NCBI GenBank assembly: GCA_902610585.1
Contig: CACLWE010000006.1
Coordinates: forward strand, 9,378-73,377
Direction: 5' to 3'
DNA length: 64,000 nt
From: an uncultured Pelagibacteraceae bacterium
GTDB lineage: Bacteria > Pseudomonadota > Alphaproteobacteria > Pelagibacterales > AG-422-B15
Under the pieces are notes generated by a model that saw only the letters and a list, made by a program, of their open reading frames with translations, had not been told where the DNA came from and did no database searches. Positions 2,016 through 64,000 of the stretch are shown piece by piece. The first letter of the stretch is position 1, and the number at the start of each line of letters is the position of its first letter. Position numbers and translations under genes: made by a program.

Positions 2016-3413
2016 ATGCCCAAATCAACTCCGATTCCCGAAAAAAAAGATCTCCTTAATGCTCTCGACGACAGAATTCTATACCCATGGCAGTATCTTG
2101 AGTATCGCGGTGAAGACAGCAGGACAATCATTGATAAGTCAAAAGGAATTTATCTTTACGATCAAAGAGGAAGACAGCTTATTGATGGTCCTGGAGGAAT
2201 GTGGAATGTTAACGTGGGACATGGTGTAAAAGAAATTGCTGATGCTGTTTATAATCAGATTACAAAAATGCCATACGCCAGCCCATTTACTGAGTCCACT
2301 GAGATAGCATATAACTATGCTTCACGACTTGTTAAATATGCGCCTGGTGATCTTAAAAGAGTATTTTTTACTTCTGGAGGATCCTCAGCAGTAGACTCTG
2401 CATTAAGATTTGTAATGTTTTATAATAATGTTCGTGGGTTAAGAGATAAGAAACAAATTATCTCGCGTCATGATGCATATCACGGAAGTACATTTTTAGG
2501 GGCTTCATGTTCAGGTAAAGAAAGAGATAAAAACAACTTTGATTTTGCAGATAACTTAGTCCATCATTTGTCTGCGCCAAATCCATTTAAAAAACCAGAT
2601 GACTTAAGCGATGAAGAATTCTGTGATCTAAAAGTTAAAGAGTTAGAAAATAAAATTTTAGAACTTGGTCAAGATAAGGTCGCAGCATTTATTGCAGAGC
2701 CAATCCTAGCATCAGGTGGGGTAATTGTTCCTCCTAAAGGATATCATAAAAAGACAAGAGAAATTTGCACTAAGTACGATGTTATTTATATTTCTGATGA
2801 GATAGTAACCGGCTTTGGAAGATTAGGTCATATATTCGCTTCTGAAAATTATTTTGATTTTGAACCTGATATCATTCTTTTAGCAAAAGGGATTACTTCA
2901 GGATACGTACCTTGTGGTGCAGTTGTTATTTCTGAAAAGCTTATGTCTCAACTTGATAATAAAGAAAAAGTTATATTCTCAAATGGATTTACTGACTCGG
3001 GTCACCCAGTGAGCATGGCAGCAGCAACAGCAACACTTGATTATATTGAAAAAAATAACCTTCTTGAGCATGTACAAGAAGTCGGCCCTTATTTTCAATC
3101 TAAATTAAGTGAATTAATTGATCTCCCGATTGTTGGTGATGTGCGTGGTGAGGGATTAATGGCGGCTGTTGAATGTGTAATCAGTAAAGAAAAAAAAGAT
3201 CCTCTAAATTTACAATACGAGATTGCCTCTCGCATCAATTCACATTGTCAAAATCTTGGTTTAATTGTTAGACCATTATTTAATACGTGTGTCATGTCTC
3301 CTTCTTTGATCATCACTAAGGAACAAATAGATGAGCTCGTCAGTATACTTAGAAAAGGAATTGAGTTAGCTACAGACGACATCAAGAAAGAAGGCCTTTG
3401 GTCTGCATCATAA
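2016..3413 (+). CDS. class-III (omega) aminotransferase, PLP-dependent (SpuC / beta-alanine-pyruvate transaminase-like)
   Basis: 465 aa. Motifs GGMWNVNVGHG, FTSGGSSAVDSALR, DEIVTGFGRLG and a lysine-containing region LLAKGITSG are typical of aminotransferase class III. Confidence 0.85.
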   Translation: MPKSTPIPEKKDLLNALDDRILYPWQYLEYRGEDSRTIIDKSKGIYLYDQRGRQLIDGPGGMWNVNVGHGVKEIADAVYNQITKMPYASPFTESTEIAYNYASRLVKYAPGDLKRVFFTSGGSSAVDSALRFVMFYNNVRGLRDKKQIISRHDAYHGSTFLGASCSGKERDKNNFDFADNLVHHLSAPNPFKKPDDLSDEEFCDLKVKELENKILELGQDKVAAFIAEPILASGGVIVPPKGYHKKTREICTKYDVIYISDEIVTGFGRLGHIFASENYFDFEPDIILLAKGITSGYVPCGAVVISEKLMSQLDNKEKVIFSNGFTDSGHPVSMAAATATLDYIEKNNLLEHVQEVGPYFQSKLSELIDLPIVGDVRGEGLMAAVECVISKEKKDPLNLQYEIASRINSHCQNLGLIVRPLFNTCVMSPSLIITKEQIDELVSILRKGIELATDDIKKEGLWSAS

Positions 3414-33155: not shown

Positions 33156-33231
33156 GGGGCTATAGCTCATCAGGGAGAGCGCGTCGCTGGCAGTGACGAG
33201 GTGGTCGGTTCAAGTCCGACTAGCTCCACCA
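33156..33231 (+). tRNA. tRNA-Ala (anticodon GGC)
   Basis: Hand-folded cloverleaf. Acceptor GGGGCTA/TAGCTCC includes the G3:U70 alanine identity pair. Anticodon loop CTGGCAG. T-arm GTCGG-TTCAAGT-CCGAC. Encoded CCA. Confidence 0.9.
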
Positions 33232-56613: not shown

Positions 56614-58413
56614 ATGACTGGCACTAAAAACATAAGAAATTTTTCTATTATCGCTCATATTGATCATGGTAAATCTACTTTAGCTGACAGATTGATTCAA
56701 TTTTGTGGAGGGCTTTCTGAAAGAGAAATGAAAGCACAGGTACTTGACTCAATGGATATTGAAAGAGAACGTGGAATAACAATCAAGGCTCAAACTGTAC
56801 AATTAAAATACAAAGCAAAAAATGGTGAAACGTACACACTTAATATTATTGATACGCCTGGCCATGTTGACTTCAGTTATGAAGTTAACAGATCATTATC
56901 TGCTTGTGAGGGATCGCTATTGGTTGTTGATGCAAGTCAGGGTGTTGAAGCTCAAACATTAGCTAATTTATATCAAGCAGTAGAAAATGATCATGTAATT
57001 ATACCCGTTTTAAATAAAATAGATTTACCAGCAGCGGATCCCGAGAGAGTAAAAAAACAGATAGAAGATATTTTAGGTATTGATACCAGTAATGTAATTG
57101 AAATTTCTGCTAAATCAGGCCTCGGCATTGAAGAAGTCTTAGAAAATATTGTAAACGAATTACCATCTCCTGTAGGTGATGAAAGTAAACAATTAAAAGC
57201 AATGCTAGTAGATAGTTGGTATGATGCCTACCTGGGTGTTGTGATATTGGTTCGTGTGATAGATGGAGTTCTAAAAAAGGGTATGGAGGTTCGTTTTCAT
57301 CAAACTAATACAAAACATTTAATAGAGAGAATTGGTTGTTTTACACCAAAAATGGTAGATAACGAGCTTATCAATGCTGGTGAATTAGGTTTTATAACAG
57401 CTGCAATTAAAGAAGTAGCTCAAACTAAGGTTGGGGATACAATACTACTAGCTAACGATAAACAAACAGAGCCTTTACCTGGCTTCAAGCCAAGTCAGCC
57501 GGTAGTATTTTGTGGATTATTTCCAACAAATGCTGCTGATTTTAAATTCTTAAAAGATGCATTAGCCAAGTTAAAGCTTAACGACTCTAGTTTTCATTTC
57601 GAACAAGAAACCTCAGCGGCTCTTGGAATGGGTTTTAGATGTGGTTTTCTTGGATTATTACATTTAGAAATTATTGTTGAAAGACTTGATAGAGAGTTCA
57701 ATTTAGATCTTATAACTACAGCTCCAAGTGTTATTTATAATTTAGTATTAAATGATGGAAGCTCACTTGAATTACATAACCCAGCAGATATGCCTGAGGT
57801 TATGAAAATTAAAAGTATTTCTGAACCTTGGATTAAAGCAACAATTATTTGTCCTGATGAATATTTAGGTAGCATCATATCTCTCTGTGAAGATAAGAGA
57901 GGAATGCAAACAGAATTATCTTATTCTGGATCAAGAGTAATTTTAAATTATAAGTTACCTCTAAATGAAATTGTTTTTGATTTTTATGATCGCTTAAAGT
58001 CAATTTCTAGTGGATATGCAAGTTTTGATTATGAAATTGATGAGTATATTGAAAGTGATTTGGTAAGACTTAGTATATTAGTAAATGATGAGTCAGTAGA
58101 TGCTCTGTCAATTATTGTTCACAGAAGTTTTTCTGAAAAAAAAGGTCGCGCTGTTTGCGAAAAACTAAAAGAATTAATTCCTCGTCATCAATTCCATATT
58201 CCAATTCAAGCAGCAATTGGCGGAAAAATTATTGCCCGCGAAACTGTCAGAGGATATCGAAAAAATGTTATTGAAAGAATACATGGTGGCGGTGCTACTG
58301 ATAGAAAAAGAAAATTACTTGATAAGCAGAAAAAAGGAAAACAGAGACTTAGAACTTACGGTAAGGTCGATATCCCACAAGAAGCCTTTATCGCTGCTTT
58401 AAAAGTTGAATAA
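56614..58413 (+). CDS. lepA: translation elongation factor 4
   Basis: [24 protein letters not shown] and NKIDLP motifs, plus a LepA C-terminal domain. 599 aa. Confidence 0.95.
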
Positions 58414-58503
58414 GGAAAGGTGGCCGAGTGGTTGAAGGCGCACGCTTGGAAAGCGTGTATGCGGGTGACCGTATCGTGGGTTCGAATCCCATCCTTTCCG
58501 CCA
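58414..58503 (+). tRNA. tRNA-Ser (anticodon GGA)
   Basis: Hand-folded. Acceptor GGAAAGG/CCTTTCC. Anticodon stem CACGC/GCGTG with loop TTGGAAA. Long variable arm. T-arm GTGGG-TTCGAAT-CCCAT. Encoded CCA. It starts on the base after the lepA TAA. Confidence 0.9.
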
Positions 58504-58543: not shown

Positions 58544-59566
58544 ATGGCTATGAATTTAGATAAATTTGAGAAATATCCACTTACTTATGGACCGACTCCA
58601 ATTGAGTATCTGCCGCGTTTGACTGAAGCGATAGGCGCTGATGTTGAGATATATGCAAAGAGAGATGACTGTAATTCAGGTTTGGCTATGGGTGGAAATA
58701 AACTAAGAAAACTAGAATATATTGTTCCAGATGCTATTGCCTCTGGAGCTGACACATTAGTTTCTATTGGCGGTGTTCAATCTAACCATACTAGAATGGT
58801 AGCTGCAACTGCTGCAAAAATTGGAATGAAGTGTGTAGTTGTTCAAGAAAGTTGGGTTCCTCATGAAGATGCAGTTTACGATCGTGTTGGTAATATTTTA
58901 ATGACGCGTTTGATGGGAGCAGATAGCAGGTTAGTACCTGACGGTTTTGATATTGGGATTAGAAAAAGTTGGGAAGACGCAATTCAATCAGTGAAAGATA
59001 GTGGTGGTAAGCCTTATGCAATTCCAGCCGGGGCATCTGTGCATAAATATGGTGGACTGGGATACGTAGGATTTGCTGAAGAAGTTCGAATGCAAGAAAA
59101 AGAGTTGTCATTAAAATTTGATTACATCATTGTGTGTGTAGTTACTGGTTCAACTCAGGCAGGGATGATCGTTGGGTTCGCAGAAGATGACCGTGCACAC
59201 AGAGTCATAGGTATTGATGGATCGGGTACACCAGATAAATTAGTCAAGCAAGTAAGAGAAATTGTAGATAATACAGTTGATTTAGTTGAACTTGGAAGAA
59301 CAATTAGAGATGATGAAATAATAATAATTCCTGACTATGCATATCCAGCATACGGAGTTCCGAGTGAAGAAACTAATGAGGCTATTCGTATGGCAGCAAA
59401 AACTGAAGCCATGATTACCGATCCTGTTTATGAGGGCAAATCTATGCAAGGAATGATTGATTTAGCCAGGAAAGGTTACTTTAAAAAAGGATCTAAAATA
59501 CTCTATGCTCATCTTGGCGGAGTTCCAGCTATTAATGGCTACTCATATACCTACCGTAATGGATAA
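58544..59566 (+). CDS. acdS: 1-aminocyclopropane-1-carboxylate deaminase / D-cysteine desulfhydrase family PLP enzyme (ACC-deaminase-like)
   Basis: It matches the AcdS sequence as I recall it along the whole length ([65 protein letters not shown]). The true start may be the ATG at 58550. Confidence 0.8.
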
Positions 59567-59572
59567 ATACAT

Positions 59573-59629
59573 CTAAAGTCCACCGGTAATTAGACTTATC
59601 ATTCCAAGTACAAGCCATAAGACAACCAT
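59573..59629 (-). other. 18-codon mini-ORF (MVVLWLVLGMISLITGGL), a duplicated 3' end of the small membrane-protein gene at 61472..61636
   Basis: Hand translation. It matches the C-terminus MLILWLVLGMVGLITGGL of the 54-aa ORF. Six consecutive codons differ only synonymously. An in-frame TAA lies 2 codons upstream of the ATG. Confidence 0.3.
59600..59622. repeat. direct repeat copy A (CATTCCAAGTACAAGCCATAAGA), downstream flank of ggt
   Basis: 23/23 identical to 61499..61521. Weaker similarity extends to about 59573-59636. Confidence 0.85.
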
Positions 59630-59639
59630 TGTTTTTTAG

Positions 59640-61430
59640 TTAATTGCCCAGTGCAATTCCCTCACGTCTTGGGTCTGAGCCTCCATAAATTTCAGTATCA
59701 ATATATATTCCATTTAGGCCTGAATAGTATTTTCTTATTTTAGTATCGTATCCCATGGCCTTTAGAGAATTTTCAAGATTTGAAGAGTAAAGAGATTCTT
59801 CTATTTCAAATTTCCCCCATCTATTAATAGCGTGAGGATGAGAGACTGCCTCTTGAATATTCATATCCCATTCGAGTAATGCGATTATCGAATTGACTAC
59901 AAAGCTGATAATATTACTGCCACCTGGAGAGCCGATAATAATGATAGGCCTTCCATCTTTTAGCACTATTGTTGGTGCCATTGATGATCTTGGCCTTTTC
60001 CCGGGCTCTAATCTATTTGCTATCAGCTTGCCATCAATTCTTTCATTAAATGAAAAATCAGTAAGTTGATTATTAAGTAAAAAACCACTTTCCGTCATCA
60101 ATCTTGATCCGAATGCATTCTCAATTGACGATGTCATCGAGAGTGCGTTTCCATACTGATCATAAATTGAAATATGCGTTGTAGATTGCAGCTCTAATGA
60201 CTTGTCTATTCCGTAATTGTAAACAAAGTCGTTAGACGGTTTACCTGAGGTTACATTTTCAGTTTTCGTTCCAACTTTAATTTTATTTGACCTTTCAATC
60301 AGATAATTGTCATTTAAAAGACCAGACAAAGGTACACTGACATAATCACTATCTGCCAAGTATCGATCGCGATCAGCAAATGCAAGACGAGTCGCATCTC
60401 CAATTATTTGCCATGTTATAGGATTTGAATAGCCCAGAGACTGAAGATCATAAGGCTCTAAAATTTTCAATATTTGCGCGACTGCTACTCCTCCAGACGA
60501 TGGTGGGCCCATGCCACATATTTTGTATACCTTATAGTTTACACAAACTGGATCTCTTTCTATTACATTGTAGTTGCCCAAATCTTCAGCTTCTAGAAAG
60601 CCAGGATTTTTGGTGTGATTTTTTACTGTGCTAATAATGTCCTGCGCAATTGATCCTTTATAGAAATCTTCAATGTTATTGTTAGCAATGTTTTGCATTG
60701 TGCTTGCATAAGCATAATTCTTCAATACCTGCTTGTGCTTTAAACTATTCCCATTTGGTAAAAAATATTCTTTCGTTTTATCTATTTTGCTAAGTCTATC
60801 TTTATCTCTTTCAATTGATGAGGATAATTTTTTTGAAACTTTAAAACCATTTTTACTTAGGAAAATTGCATCATCAAAGAGGTTTTCCCACTTTTGATTA
60901 CCCCATTTCTTTTGAGCATCAAACATTAATGCAAGAGTTCCAGGTGTACCAACCGATAGACCACCTATGACAGCATCAAAAAACTTCATTTTAGTTCCAT
61001 CACTTTTTAGAAATTGATTTGTAGTTGAGTTTTGTGGTGCAGTCTCACGACCATCTAAAGTAACTATTTTACCCGTTACACCGTCATACCATAACAAGAA
61101 ACTACCCCCACCAATTCCTGATGACTCAGGCTCGACTAAGCCTAACATAGATTGAGCTGCAACCATTGCATCTGCTGCTGTACCTCCAGATTGTAATATT
61201 TTTGCACCAGCAGCTGAAGCATAGGCGTTTGCCGTGACAATCATCCAGTTTTTACTTGAAACAGATTTTCCATTTTCTTTGAGATTGAGTGACTCTTGAA
61301 TTTCTAATCTATCAAGCTCTACTGAGACACCTTCAAATATTTCTGGAGAATTATCCTTAATATTATTGTCAGAATATGAATTTTTTAGTGAGAAAAATAA
61401 TATTAAAAATACAAGTAAAATTTTTTGCAT
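59640..61430 (-). CDS. ggt: gamma-glutamyltransferase (periplasmic, Ntn-hydrolase)
   Basis: Start taken at 61430 (MQKILLVFLILFFSLKNSYS signal peptide). Autoprocessing/nucleophile motif STTHISIYD. GSPGGSNII motif. Confidence 0.85.
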   Translation of the reverse strand: MQKILLVFLILFFSLKNSYSDNNIKDNSPEIFEGVSVELDRLEIQESLNLKENGKSVSSKNWMIVTANAYASAAGAKILQSGGTAADAMVAAQSMLGLVEPESSGIGGGSFLLWYDGVTGKIVTLDGRETAPQNSTTNQFLKSDGTKMKFFDAVIGGLSVGTPGTLALMFDAQKKWGNQKWENLFDDAIFLSKNGFKVSKKLSSSIERDKDRLSKIDKTKEYFLPNGNSLKHKQVLKNYAYASTMQNIANNNIEDFYKGSIAQDIISTVKNHTKNPGFLEAEDLGNYNVIERDPVCVNYKVYKICGMGPPSSGGVAVAQILKILEPYDLQSLGYSNPITWQIIGDATRLAFADRDRYLADSDYVSVPLSGLLNDNYLIERSNKIKVGTKTENVTSGKPSNDFVYNYGIDKSLELQSTTHISIYDQYGNALSMTSSIENAFGSRLMTESGFLLNNQLTDFSFNERIDGKLIANRLEPGKRPRSSMAPTIVLKDGRPIIIIGSPGGSNIISFVVNSIIALLEWDMNIQEAVSHPHAINRWGKFEIEESLYSSNLENSLKAMGYDTKIRKYYSGLNGIYIDTEIYGGSDPRREGIALGN

Positions 61431-61471
61431 AAAAACCAGATCATCATACCAGTGCAATAAATGTTTAGGTG

Positions 61472-61636
61472 TTATAAGCCTCCAGTGATGAGACCAACCA
61501 TTCCAAGTACAAGCCATAAGATTAACATTGTTCTTTCATTAAATGCTCTTGTACTCTCAATTTTCTTCGCCTGCTTATAAATCACCATAGATAAAAGCAT
61601 TACCAAGACCAGAAGGTATATAATTGTAAATATCAT
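61472..61636 (-). CDS. possible 54-aa two-TM small membrane protein (MIFTIIYLLVLVMLLSMVIYKQAKKIESTRAFNERTMLILWLVLGMVGLITGGL)
   Basis: Hand-translated ORF 41 nt upstream of ggt. Its 3' end is duplicated downstream of ggt with peptide-conserving substitutions, which argues that the reading frame is real. Confidence 0.45.
   Translation of the reverse strand: MIFTIIYLLVLVMLLSMVIYKQAKKIESTRAFNERTMLILWLVLGMVGLITGGL
61499..61521. repeat. direct repeat copy B (CATTCCAAGTACAAGCCATAAGA), upstream flank of ggt
   Basis: 23/23 identical to 59600..59622, 1899 bp away in the same orientation. Confidence 0.85.
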
Positions 61637-61682
61637 GTGATTTATAGTATCAATTCGACGTTGGAAGTATATAAATTAAAAC

Positions 61683-62885
61683 ATGCAGTTATTTAGACAT
61701 TCTTATTCAACATTAGTGATTATTGGAGGCTGCATACTCTTGCTTGTCTCATTCGGTATAAGGCATTCTTCTGGACTTTATTTGATCCCAATTTCTGAAC
61801 ATATACAAACTGGTAGAGAAGTATTTGGGTTTGCCATTGCAATACAATTTCTTATGATTGGCATCGGATCACCAATTTTTGGCGCTATAGCAGATAAATA
61901 TAGTTCATCGGTAGCGGGCCTATTAGGAGTAATTTTCTTTTTAATCGGACTTTACTTAATGTCACTTGTTGAAGGTTCAATACTTCTTATCGTTTCACAA
62001 ATAATTTTTGGATTTGGATGCGCTGGATGTGGTACTGCTGTAATATTAGGGGCTGTTGGTAAAGCTGTAACAGGTAAATATCAAACATTATCTCTAGGTG
62101 TTGTAATGGCTGCAGGTTCGCTGGGTCAATTTTTAATTGTTCCTCTTACAGGCTTCTTAATAGAAATGAGTGATTGGCAAAGATCAATCTTATATCTTTG
62201 TTTTATTTCACTTATCATGATTTTATTCTCACTAGTATTAACAAAGTATTCATCCAAAAGTGGAATAAATGATGAAGTTAATAGAACTTTAGCATCTGTT
62301 TTAAATGAAGCCTTTGCAAATAAGAGCTATGTCTTACTGACAATTGGTTTTTTTGTTTGTGGTTTTCATATTTCTTTTATAGCAACTCATCTACCCGCAT
62401 ACCTCGATGATTTATCTTTGCCCATGTGGATCGGTTCCTGGTCTTTAGCACTAATCGGATTATTTAATGTAATAGGCACACTTGTTTTTGGTCATTTAGG
62501 TGACCTAAGGTCTAAAAAAAATCTGTTGGTAATATTGTATACTCTACGTGCCCTACTGTTTTTAATTTTTATCTTTTTGCCAAAAACTGAAATAACAGTT
62601 TTAATTTTTGCATCACTTCTTGGAATTCTATGGCTATCTACAGTGCCTCTTACCAGTGGAATAATATCAGTTATTTTTGGATCAAAATATATGTCTATGC
62701 TGTATGGTTTTACTTTCTTATCTCACCAAGTCGGTTCGTTTGTTGGATCATGGTTTGGAGGCAGGTTTTATGATTATTATGGTTCTTATGATATTATGTG
62801 GTGGGCTTGTGTGATTTTAGGGTTTGCTTCTGCAGTAGTTCATTTTCCAATTAAAGAAACACCACTAGTCAAAATGGCAAATTAA
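61683..62885 (+). CDS. MFS transporter
   Basis: 400 aa with about 12 hydrophobic segments and a central loop. MFS-like GxxxDKxxxR-type loop (GAIADKYSS). Confidence 0.8.
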   Translation: MQLFRHSYSTLVIIGGCILLLVSFGIRHSSGLYLIPISEHIQTGREVFGFAIAIQFLMIGIGSPIFGAIADKYSSSVAGLLGVIFFLIGLYLMSLVEGSILLIVSQIIFGFGCAGCGTAVILGAVGKAVTGKYQTLSLGVVMAAGSLGQFLIVPLTGFLIEMSDWQRSILYLCFISLIMILFSLVLTKYSSKSGINDEVNRTLASVLNEAFANKSYVLLTIGFFVCGFHISFIATHLPAYLDDLSLPMWIGSWSLALIGLFNVIGTLVFGHLGDLRSKKNLLVILYTLRALLFLIFIFLPKTEITVLIFASLLGILWLSTVPLTSGIISVIFGSKYMSMLYGFTFLSHQVGSFVGSWFGGRFYDYYGSYDIMWWACVILGFASAVVHFPIKETPLVKMAN

Positions 62886-62953: not shown

Positions 62954-63187
62954 TTGAATATTGTGCCTAAGAGTTCAAAAAAAAGATCATTGGTAAAAGC
63001 CCTTACCTGGAGAGTAACTGCAACAGCAGACACATTCTTAATCAGTTACCTAGTAATTTTAAAATCAGATTTTTCAGTTCTTGAAACTGCTGGTTTAATT
63101 GCTGCACTGGAAGTAATTACAAAGGTAACTATTTATTATTTTCATGAAAGAATATGGAATTCTTTATCTTGGGGTATAGAATCTTAA
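62954..63187 (+). CDS. DUF2061-like small membrane protein
   Basis: KALTWRVTATADTFLISYLV... pattern and two TM segments. The TTG start is uncertain; the GTG at 62963 is an alternative. Confidence 0.55.
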   Translation: MNIVPKSSKKRSLVKALTWRVTATADTFLISYLVILKSDFSVLETAGLIAALEVITKVTIYYFHERIWNSLSWGIES

Positions 63188-63231
63188 TTAAGTATTTTTA
63201 ATTATATACTGATTCTTATAGTAAAAACTAT

Positions 63232-63248
63232 TTATCCACTTATCCACA
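63232..63248 (+). promoter_or_regulatory. two overlapping tandem DnaA-box-like 9-mers (TTATCCACT, TTATCCACA)
   Basis: The sequence TTATCCACTTATCCACA was read directly. The second 9-mer equals the E. coli-type consensus TTATCCACA. Confidence 0.3.
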
Positions 63249-63315
63249 TCGTATAAGGAGTTTTTTTTATAAAACTTATTTAAAATATTTTTTCTATTTG
63301 CTATCCTTTTCATAT

Positions 63316-63422
63316 CGGACGAACAAAGAACGAAAGCCCTTCGGGGAGTTTGTCGGCGGGAGGCCGAGTTTCGGGGCGGAATGGAGACCTTTAGGGGTTT
63401 GTGTTGCGCCCCGTTTTTTTTT
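63316..63422 (+). ncRNA. GC-rich structured element (candidate riboswitch, attenuator leader or sRNA) ending in an intrinsic terminator, upstream of the LysE-family gene
   Basis: By hand count about 60 of 98 nt are G+C, in a roughly 30 percent GC context. Hairpin CCC-UUCG-GGG (63337-63346) is enclosed by ACAAA/UUUGU (63323-27/63349-53). Hairpin CCGA-GUU-UCGG spans 63364-63374. Three GGGG runs compete for a single CCCC. Confidence 0.5.
63373..63422 (+). terminator. intrinsic terminator-like structure: GGGGCG (63373-63378) pairs with CGCCCC (63407-63412), followed by nine U (63414-63422)
   Basis: Read directly. The 6-bp G/C stem has a large (28-nt) loop, and a shorter alternative stem uses GGGG at 63394-63397. 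The U9 tract lies 29 nt before the downstream ATG. Confidence 0.5.
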
Positions 63423-63450
63423 GCTCCCTTAAATACTACTGCTCGTTCTT

Positions 63451-64000
63451 ATGATCTTTGATTTCTCATTACTTTACTTTTTCATACCAGTTTTTTTCAT
63501 AATATCCATTACTCCAGGTTTATGCATGACACTTGCTTTAACAATGGGAATTACAATAGGTGTAAAAAATACAATGAAAATGATGGTTGGAGAATTAATA
63601 GGAGTTTTAATTGTAGCAGGTACAGCGGTGGTAGGAGGTGGAGCGATCATCTCATCTTTTCCAATTGCATTTGCAGTTTTCAAATATGGAGGAGGTCTTT
63701 ATTTGATGTTTGTTGGTTATCAGATGATTAACTCAAGAGGATCGCTAGCATTAAATTTGGATGGTTCACATTCATTTGAAATAAATTTTTTTAAGTTAGC
63801 AATGCAAGGTTTTATAACTGCTGTTGCGAATCCAAAAGGTTGGGCATTTTTTATTGCCATGGTACCTGCATTTATTAATTACGATGCAAATTTAATTCCA
63901 CAAATGTCAGCACTCGTAATAATTATTCTTATAATTGAGTTTATTTCACTTATGATTTACGCAACTGGAGGTCAAGCTTTAGGTATTGTGTTAAAAAAAC
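63451..64000 (+). CDS. LysE/RhtB-family amino-acid exporter (3' end outside the window)
   Basis: Hand translation from the ATG at 63451: MIFDFSLLYFFIPVFFIISITPGLCMTLALTMG...AVANPKGWAFF... matches LysE-family signatures. The frame is open to the window end, which is why it is absent from the ORF track. Confidence 0.8.
   Translation, partial: MIFDFSLLYFFIPVFFIISITPGLCMTLALTMGITIGVKNTMKMMVGELIGVLIVAGTAVVGGGAIISSFPIAFAVFKYGGGLYLMFVGYQMINSRGSLALNLDGSHSFEINFFKLAMQGFITAVANPKGWAFFIAMVPAFINYDANLIPQMSALVIIILIIEFISLMIYATGGQALGIVLKK

Follow-up and report, generated by a model that had tools for sequence, protein, structure and literature searches.

Does the GC-rich segment that lies in front of a LysE-family exporter gene in a marine SAR11 genome regulate that gene, or is it a gene in its own right? 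No bacterial lineage in the surface ocean outnumbers SAR11, a group that combines few protein regulators and transcription factors with heavy RNA-based control. The window analyzed in this study is a stretch of 64,000 nucleotides from an uncultured member of the Pelagibacteraceae. Its initial annotation had read the segment as a riboswitch for the substrate of the exporter and had kept a stand-alone sRNA as a fallback. Analysis of base composition revealed 61% G+C at positions 63316-63413, in agreement with the 60% estimated earlier, and 55% over the complete element (63314-63422), against 19% in the 126-nt spacer ahead of it (63188-63313) and 34% in the whole window. The spacer from the DUF2061 ORF (62954-63187) to the LysE-family ATG at 63451 measures 263 nt, and this ATG lies 28 nt past the U-tract. 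Assignment of the downstream ORF to the LysE/RhtB family was confirmed by a match of the full-length ortholog L003 to Pfam PF01810 (E = 7e-21). The features identified at the locus are listed in Table 1.

Table 1. Features of the element and its surroundings, with positions in the window.
Feature	Position	Strand	Remarks
Tandem DnaA-box-like repeat TTATCCACTTATCCACA = TTATCCAC-T-TATCCACA	63232-63248	+	Candidate site; -81 to -66, centred at about -73 from the predicted start
-35-like hexamer TTTAAA	63279-63284	+	17 nt ahead of the -10-like hexamer
TG and -10-like hexamer TATCCT	63299-63307 (hexamer 63302-63307)	+	
Structured RNA	63314-63422	+	About 109 nt: 5' hairpin domain, UUU linker, terminator hairpin with U9
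5' domain	63314-63368	+	P1: UCGG (63315-63318) with CCGA (63364-63367)
5' apical module	63331-63352	+	CGAA-AG-CCC-UUCG-GGG-AG-UUUG, conserved
Group-1-specific local hairpin CGGC-GGGAG-GCCG	63354-63366	+	Competes with P1 for CCG
Intrinsic terminator	63372-63422	+	7-bp G+C stem, covarying middle stem, conserved top GAGACCUUUAGGGG, U9
LysE/RhtB-family exporter ORF	63451-64000	+	Cut by the window end; behind the RNA in groups 1-3 only

The element proved to be a genuine RNA with two hairpins that is conserved in marine SAR11, within certain lineages of the Pelagibacteraceae only. A total of 68 copies belonging to five sequence groups were identified in SAR11 genomes and metagenomes; comparison of upstream regions, proposed at the outset as a check, thus revealed 68 conserved loci with covariation in both hairpins. 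The genome scan with a LysE fragment returned 64 loci, in 41 of which, from Pelagibacteraceae, the element precedes the ATG by 27-35 nt. The gene-blind metagenome scan with the query AAAGCCNNNNGGGGAGTTTGT returned mostly chance matches, along with 19 true copies that included two new groups, group 4 and group 5, the latter represented there by L154. Look-ups of SelO and MFS homologs added further members to group 5 (L165, L166), group 2 (L171-L174) and group 4 (L169). The covariance model R1 detected a single copy in the window (119 bits, E = 9e-27) and one copy per locus, with no second copy in the window or in the loci with divergent LysE genes. The RNA was not found with LysE orthologs at 66-83% identity, with the 85% identical ortholog L029, with gamma-proteobacterial LysE orthologs or with the MFS and SelO orthologs of other lineages, and the scan of viral contigs gave no matches. 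Among the intergenic regions listed for strain HTCC1062, none is both long enough and GC-rich enough to accommodate tRNA-Ser, box and RNA together, which makes absence of the RNA from this strain probable.

Search of Rfam 15 with the whole window at the gathering threshold returned two tRNAs only; search of 63150-63520 at E<10 returned only chance matches to snR62 and BSR0602, and search with the variants of groups 2-5 returned tRNAs only. Membership in an Rfam family, including the guanidine-I, guanidine-II, guanidine-III and glutamine riboswitches, was therefore rejected, as none of their models matched the element at the gathering threshold. The earlier failure to match the element to a riboswitch consensus agrees with these cmscan results. 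The partial resemblance to guanidine and glutamine riboswitches did not hold, since nothing relevant appeared at E<10 and GGACGA is not conserved. In a search of openly accessible literature, the RNA family is uncatalogued as far as Rfam 15 and two surveys of SAR11 noncoding RNAs show. A leader peptide was also rejected: neither the 44-aa ORF starting with TTG nor the AUG at GGAAUGG is conserved, and many copies have AUA.

The single-sequence fold energy of the element is not significant alone (z = -1.45), so that comparison across sequences has to carry the argument for a genuine RNA. Conservation in the upstream alignment begins sharply at A63314. The helices with support from covariation are those of a long interrupted 5' hairpin and of the terminator hairpin. 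Pair counts for the long 5' hairpin, taken after hand realignment of the linker, gave 80-85% standard pairs in the register i+j=57, against 25-53% with a slid partner strand, and changes on both sides were found in eight of its ten pairs (among them 5/52, where G-C changes to A-U, and 9/48 and 10/47, where A-U changes to G-C). The minimum free energy folds of groups 2-5 share this long interrupted hairpin, which runs from the 5' end to just short of the UUU linker, and across groups it is closed by P1, the pairing of CCGR with the 5' UCGG. Its apical module is near-invariant (CGAA-AG-CCY-NNNN-GGG-AG-UUUG), with compatible changes (C-G/U-G, G-U/A-U).

Comparison of these results with the hairpins drawn in the initial annotation gave mixed agreement. 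The CCC-UUCG-GGG hairpin is present at 63337-63346. The ACAAA/UUUGU helix placed around it has a pair probability of 0.001, against 0.85 for CGAA (63331-63334) with UUUG, and the R-U compatible changes in the other groups fit the CGAA/UUUG pairing and not ACAAA/UUUGU. The proposed second hairpin, CCGA-GUU-UCGG, has a pair probability of 0.001 in the full RNA, its CCGR strand being paired with the 5' UCGG across groups. Group 1, to which the window belongs, has the long 5' hairpin without its middle part. Here the local CGGC/GCCG hairpin is predicted at -16.0 kcal/mol, against -14.2 kcal/mol with P1 enforced, and its pair probability is 0.82-0.92, against 0.07-0.16 for P1. This local hairpin is not formed in the other groups, for which the predicted folds give the long hairpin.

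The terminator with its run of nine U residues was borne out. CGGGGCG (63372-63378) pairs with CGCCCCG (63407-63413) at a probability of 0.99, directly ahead of U9 (63414-63422). Across the alignment 97% of the cells in the terminator helix are paired, five pairs are changed on both sides (among them columns 67/96, with G-C replaced by C-G, and columns 69/94, with A-U replaced by U-A), and none of 500 shuffles reached the observed score. A simple terminator scanner missed this hairpin because its loop is larger than the 3-8 nt to which the scanner is limited. The top of the terminator hairpin has the same architecture as the 5' module, and in group 5 also the same sequence: both hairpins carry nearly the same apical module, in which a 4-bp stem (xRRA/UUUG) is followed by a 2x2 loop of purines, a second stem (CCY/GGG) and a tetraloop that varies. 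The G-U pairs identify the plus strand as the RNA strand.

Analysis of 57 distinct upstream sequences suggests that a sigma-70-like promoter is phased to the first conserved base of the RNA. Base counts at positions -35 to -30 are T48, T54, T45, A43, A44 and A47; in the -10 region T occurs at -12 in 48, A at -11 in 51 and T at -7 in 52 of the 57 sequences. The A of AUCGGA stands at +1 in all but one of them (56/57). The pattern TTTAAA-N17-TAnnAT puts +1 at A63314, and in group 1 TGC occurs immediately ahead of the -10-like hexamer.

Farther upstream, the tandem repeat contains a perfect TTATCCACA at 63240-63248 and a copy with one mismatch at 63232-63240. TTATCCACA is the textbook consensus 9-mer of the DnaA box. 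The perfect copy is unique within the window; nine of the ten sources checked have one perfect copy each, always at this site, and the tenth (L154) has a variant only. In 57 of 61 copies the box keeps a fixed distance of 84 +/- 1-2 nt from the AAAGCC downstream of it; of the four copies off the pattern, two have a variant box and one lies on a cut contig. It is conserved in groups 1-4. The 65 nt between the box and the RNA (approximately 90% A+T) vary freely, and the distance stays constant. The repeat is a candidate binding site for a DNA-binding regulator, for which the DnaA-box label is taken from the textbook consensus. A replication origin was rejected: a single perfect box per locus, the lack of a box cluster and the lack of a GC-skew turn in the window argue against it.

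Comparison of gene order between groups revealed that the upstream anchor of the RNA is kept and that its downstream partner is not. The order in the window is pheT, lepA, tRNA-Ser, PALP enzyme, GGT (minus strand), MFS, DUF2061, box, RNA and LysE. Group 5 has lepA, tRNA-Ser, box (10 nt past the tRNA), RNA, SelO and EamA, the EamA gene behind SelO being found in L166. Group 4 has lepA, MFS, box and RNA, followed by convergent genes; on its seven contigs, L169 included, the stop codon of a convergent ORF lies in the U-tract, and in the six contigs from the metagenome scan this ORF has 87-99 aa and its stop is the CUA inside the interrupted U-tract. The upstream synteny pheT-lepA-tRNA-Ser(-MFS) is retained, with MFS usual and not constant. 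Among the 68 copies, LysE follows in 57 and SelO in three, seven have a convergent ORF only, and one lies at a contig end. Of the properties usually looked for in riboswitches, a conserved structured domain with covariation is present, and placement before functionally related genes is not. Judged from sequence comparison, conservation of the RNA is independent of its flanking genes, extending over three downstream contexts.

These contexts bear directly on the proposal of a riboswitch dedicated to the LysE substrate, which is not supported by our analysis. The RNA is conserved, with compensatory changes, on the seven group 4 contigs that have no co-directional gene behind it, and it precedes SelO in group 5. 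Within one genome, AH-287-F15 (contig CACNXQ010000008.1), the RNA (L169, 5302-5410) stands after the MFS gene, 5.4 kb from the LysE ortholog (L040, 3001-3627); this ortholog, 83% identical, starts after a 6-nt gap behind a 263-aa ORF and has no RNA in front. LysE orthologs at 66-83% identity, and L029, do without the RNA, and no conserved antiterminator was seen. Four changes separate two orphan copies of group 4, L069 and L099, and jointly make four new pairs in the 5' hairpin, which indicates that the structure is still under selection without a target in cis.

The former fallback, a stand-alone sRNA ending at 63422, is the best-fitting reading. We give about an even chance to an independently transcribed gene for a structured sRNA of approximately 109 nt, with its own promoter and terminator and possibly protein-binding. 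A promoter-like region, an upstream site, a terminator and a structure that is conserved without a following gene fit a stand-alone RNA best. Transcription would start at A63314 from a sigma-70-type promoter, the tandem DnaA-box-like site upstream probably recruiting a DNA-binding regulator, and would end at the strong intrinsic terminator at 63422. The RNA folds into two long imperfect hairpins with a duplicated apical module. Conservation of both helix strands leaves almost no single-stranded seed, and from this we infer that the RNA acts in trans through binding of a protein, which may be a dimer, rather than through seed pairing. The confinement of nearly all conserved bases to helices with symmetric purine loops, together with the duplicated module, leans the same way, to a protein-binding RNA. 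The downstream gene (LysE in the window) has no room for a promoter of its own and probably receives transcription that runs past the terminator; such read-through would be a by-product and not a ligand switch, the terminator gating whichever gene follows.

The strongest competitor of the free-standing sRNA is a leader acting in cis, either a riboswitch or a factor-dependent attenuator, in which a ligand or protein bound by the 5' hairpin, or by the conserved top of the terminator hairpin as a 'terminator-embedded' or tandem aptamer, controls the extent of read-through. Read-through would enter an efflux or stress gene (LysE; SelO-EamA) or, in group 4, run antisense into the convergent gene. 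We consider this possible but clearly the less probable of the two. The RNA looks like a leader or attenuator in that 60 of the 68 copies have a co-directional gene, lacking an obvious promoter, that starts 13-35 nt past the U-tract, and this counts against the sRNA reading. So do the two 5' folds of group 1, which lie within 1.8 kcal/mol and resemble a switch. Exporter genes recur downstream (LysE, and EamA behind SelO in L166), the 3' strand of P1 (CCGR) can pair with the 5' UCGG or with the UCGG of the terminator, and the terminator hairpin shows more conservation in its interior than termination calls for. The HMP-PP riboswitch, with its terminator-embedded aptamer, offers a precedent (PMC6478431).

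Evidence against a leader is, however, found in both its genes and its structure. The downstream genes are functionally unrelated, and none is present on seven contigs; one genome has its LysE gene apart from the RNA; and the LysE and SelO orthologs outside the RNA-bearing lineages lack the RNA. The three GGGG runs noted earlier are indeed present, and the repeated CGG/CCG, GGGG/CCC and UUUG motifs permit many alternative pairings. The candidate antiterminator, CCGR with either UCGG, is nonetheless only 3-4 bp long, with a pair probability of 0.001 in the window, whereas the G+C stem that it would have to displace has 7 bp and prolongs a hairpin of 15 bp. Truncated folds vary by group, and comparison across groups of folds ending before the 3' strand of the terminator revealed no common antiterminator. 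Conservation is found in helices and symmetric purine loops, with no multi-helix junction. Because the RNA keeps its position and shape while the downstream gene changes, a free-standing sRNA is more likely than a LysE riboswitch. Read-through in group 4 would yield antisense RNA to the convergent gene, which leaves some room for a role in cis there.

Action as a classical base-pairing sRNA, antisense to mRNAs through the 5' AUCGG, the AAA internal loop or the linker, is doubtful. An own promoter, a terminator with a long U-tail and conservation independent of the neighbours are the usual anatomy of an sRNA gene, and the invariant 5' end AUCGG recalls seeds at 5' ends. Against this, the conserved bases are nearly all paired, and the loops are variable and only 4 nt long. 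Within the 64-kb window, no enrichment was seen for the complement of CAAACTCCCC, the stretch with the highest conservation (four matches, one of them the element itself, against 2.2 expected), nor for the complement of GGGGAGUUUG, which gave no hint of targets in trans. A further proposal, which we regard as unlikely, is that in the streamlined genomes of SAR11 the replication initiator DnaA drives this clade-specific two-hairpin RNA from the tandem box, and that the RNA either titrates a protein by means of its duplicated stem-loop module or constitutes a new tandem, terminator-embedded aptamer gating efflux and stress genes (LysE, SelO-EamA). If true, a DnaA-driven RNA would tie a post-transcriptional circuit, or one of attenuation, to the state of replication or of nutrients. 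Least probable by far is that the locus has no RNA function and is a GC-rich palindrome serving as a strong, perhaps bidirectional, terminator or insulator, or else a site that works as DNA, for instance an element of a replication origin: a very stable terminator between converging or tandem genes and a DnaA-box-like repeat followed by A+T-rich sequence would suit it, but the 5' domain is conserved like the terminator and covaries with G-U pairs possible on one strand only, the promoter signals are phased to the first base of the RNA, and one perfect box without a cluster or GC-skew turn does not make an origin.

An RNA motif upstream of an exporter of this type has been described in SAR11. 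Meyer et al. 2009 (BMC Genomics 10:268, PMC2704228) reported the 'rhtB motif' of Pelagibacter ubique, a candidate RNA between a hypothetical gene and rhtB (LysE-type translocator), with 6-9 U after the hairpin in about half of the cases, and weighed regulation or a termination signal as its role. Its consensus (supplement 8) is a single bulged hairpin, GAUAGUCCUn-YYUAGCCAUC-UUUAGCUCCC-GGUUUU-AGGACUAUC. Like the element, it occurs in SAR11 directly upstream of a LysE/RhtB gene and contains a conserved hairpin, and by our own reading many rows of its alignment have a TGCTATAT-like -10 ahead at a similar distance. Unlike the two hairpins and 109 nt of the element, it forms one bulged hairpin (GAUAGUCCU...AGGACUAUC) of approximately 60 nt, and sequence and fold are unrelated. 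Identity with the rhtB motif was rejected, as no match occurred in the window (three mismatches or fewer) or in the 64 loci, and none of the 12 supplements of that paper contains strings of the element.

The second survey, Stav et al. 2019 (PMC6429828), placed a SAR11 'sRNA-1' between phosphoglucomutase/tRNA and Ap4A hydrolase/TauE, and its table of HIMB5 motifs contains none flanked by MFS or LysE genes. The element shares with stand-alone sRNA genes, sRNA-1 included, a promoter, a length of approximately 100 nt, a U-rich terminator, independence of the neighbours and restriction to a clade; it differs in being far more base-paired than typical seed-pairing sRNAs, and sRNA-1 lies at a different locus. 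Termination riboswitches (HMP-PP/thiS, guanidine-II) likewise have a GC-rich leader in an AT-rich genome, a terminator just before the gene, a conserved interior of the terminator hairpin and two similar hairpins in series. The element differs from them in having no Rfam match, no apparent conserved antiterminator and downstream genes that are unrelated or absent, and guanidine-II needs ACGR loops whereas the loops of the element are variable. No mention of the locus occurs in the excerpted text of a paper on Red Sea mdRNA-Seq (PMC5069720), and literature on SAR11 sRNAs, psRNAs and DnaA boxes yielded nothing relevant.

This study contributes an uncatalogued RNA gene with a promoter-like region, a candidate regulator site, a covariation-supported structure and a covariance model, and the element is a concrete target for metatranscriptome mining and biochemistry. 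Correction of the LysE-riboswitch call saves an effort of ligand screening on LysE-exported amino acids. Demonstration of a DnaA link or of ligand sensing would raise the interest of the RNA above moderate.

Several minor observations were made at these loci. The SAR11_0636 motif in supplement 11 of PMC2704228 contains UGUGGAUAA, which is TTATCCACA on the opposite strand, together with tandem GAAUCAAAA repeats; from its sequence, this 'RNA motif' may be a DNA-level site for DnaA or another protein rather than an RNA. The LysE leaders of group 3 (L024-L039, 35 nt from U-tract to ATG) contain a hairpin UUUGUGUC/GAUACAAA that ends 9 nt before the AUG and a AAUCGGAUACAAA resembling the 5' end of the RNA itself, and these could mark either a second start site or an element that acts separately on translation. 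The LysE frame of L041 (3001-3550) is broken after residue 16, by a frameshift or an error in single-cell genome (SAG) sequencing, and the RNA upstream of it is intact save for one base in the terminator top. Gamma-proteobacterial (Pseudomonadales/K189A) LysE orthologs (L052, L055-L058), 71% identical to the SAR11 protein, have a GC-rich 5' leader of their own at approximately 2830-3000, with hairpins GCCGCC-AUU-GGCGGC and CCCAAG...CUUGGG; these leaders gave no Rfam match, and their consensus fold, from five sequences, is weak. The second tRNA gene of the window (33156-33228, 55.8 bits to Rfam tRNA) is unrelated to the RNA. The genes at 58544-62885 of the window have a thiol/amino-acid flavour, comprising the PALP enzyme (of the ACC-deaminase/D-cysteine-desulfhydrase type), gamma-glutamyltranspeptidase, the MFS transporter and DUF2061, and SelO and EamA in group 5 match it. 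The lepA stop codon abuts the tRNA-Ser of the window (58413-58500) with no spacer, and the same tRNA-Ser occurs in group 5 (L166, 2703-2789) 10 nt before the box and RNA, so that it serves as a synteny anchor.
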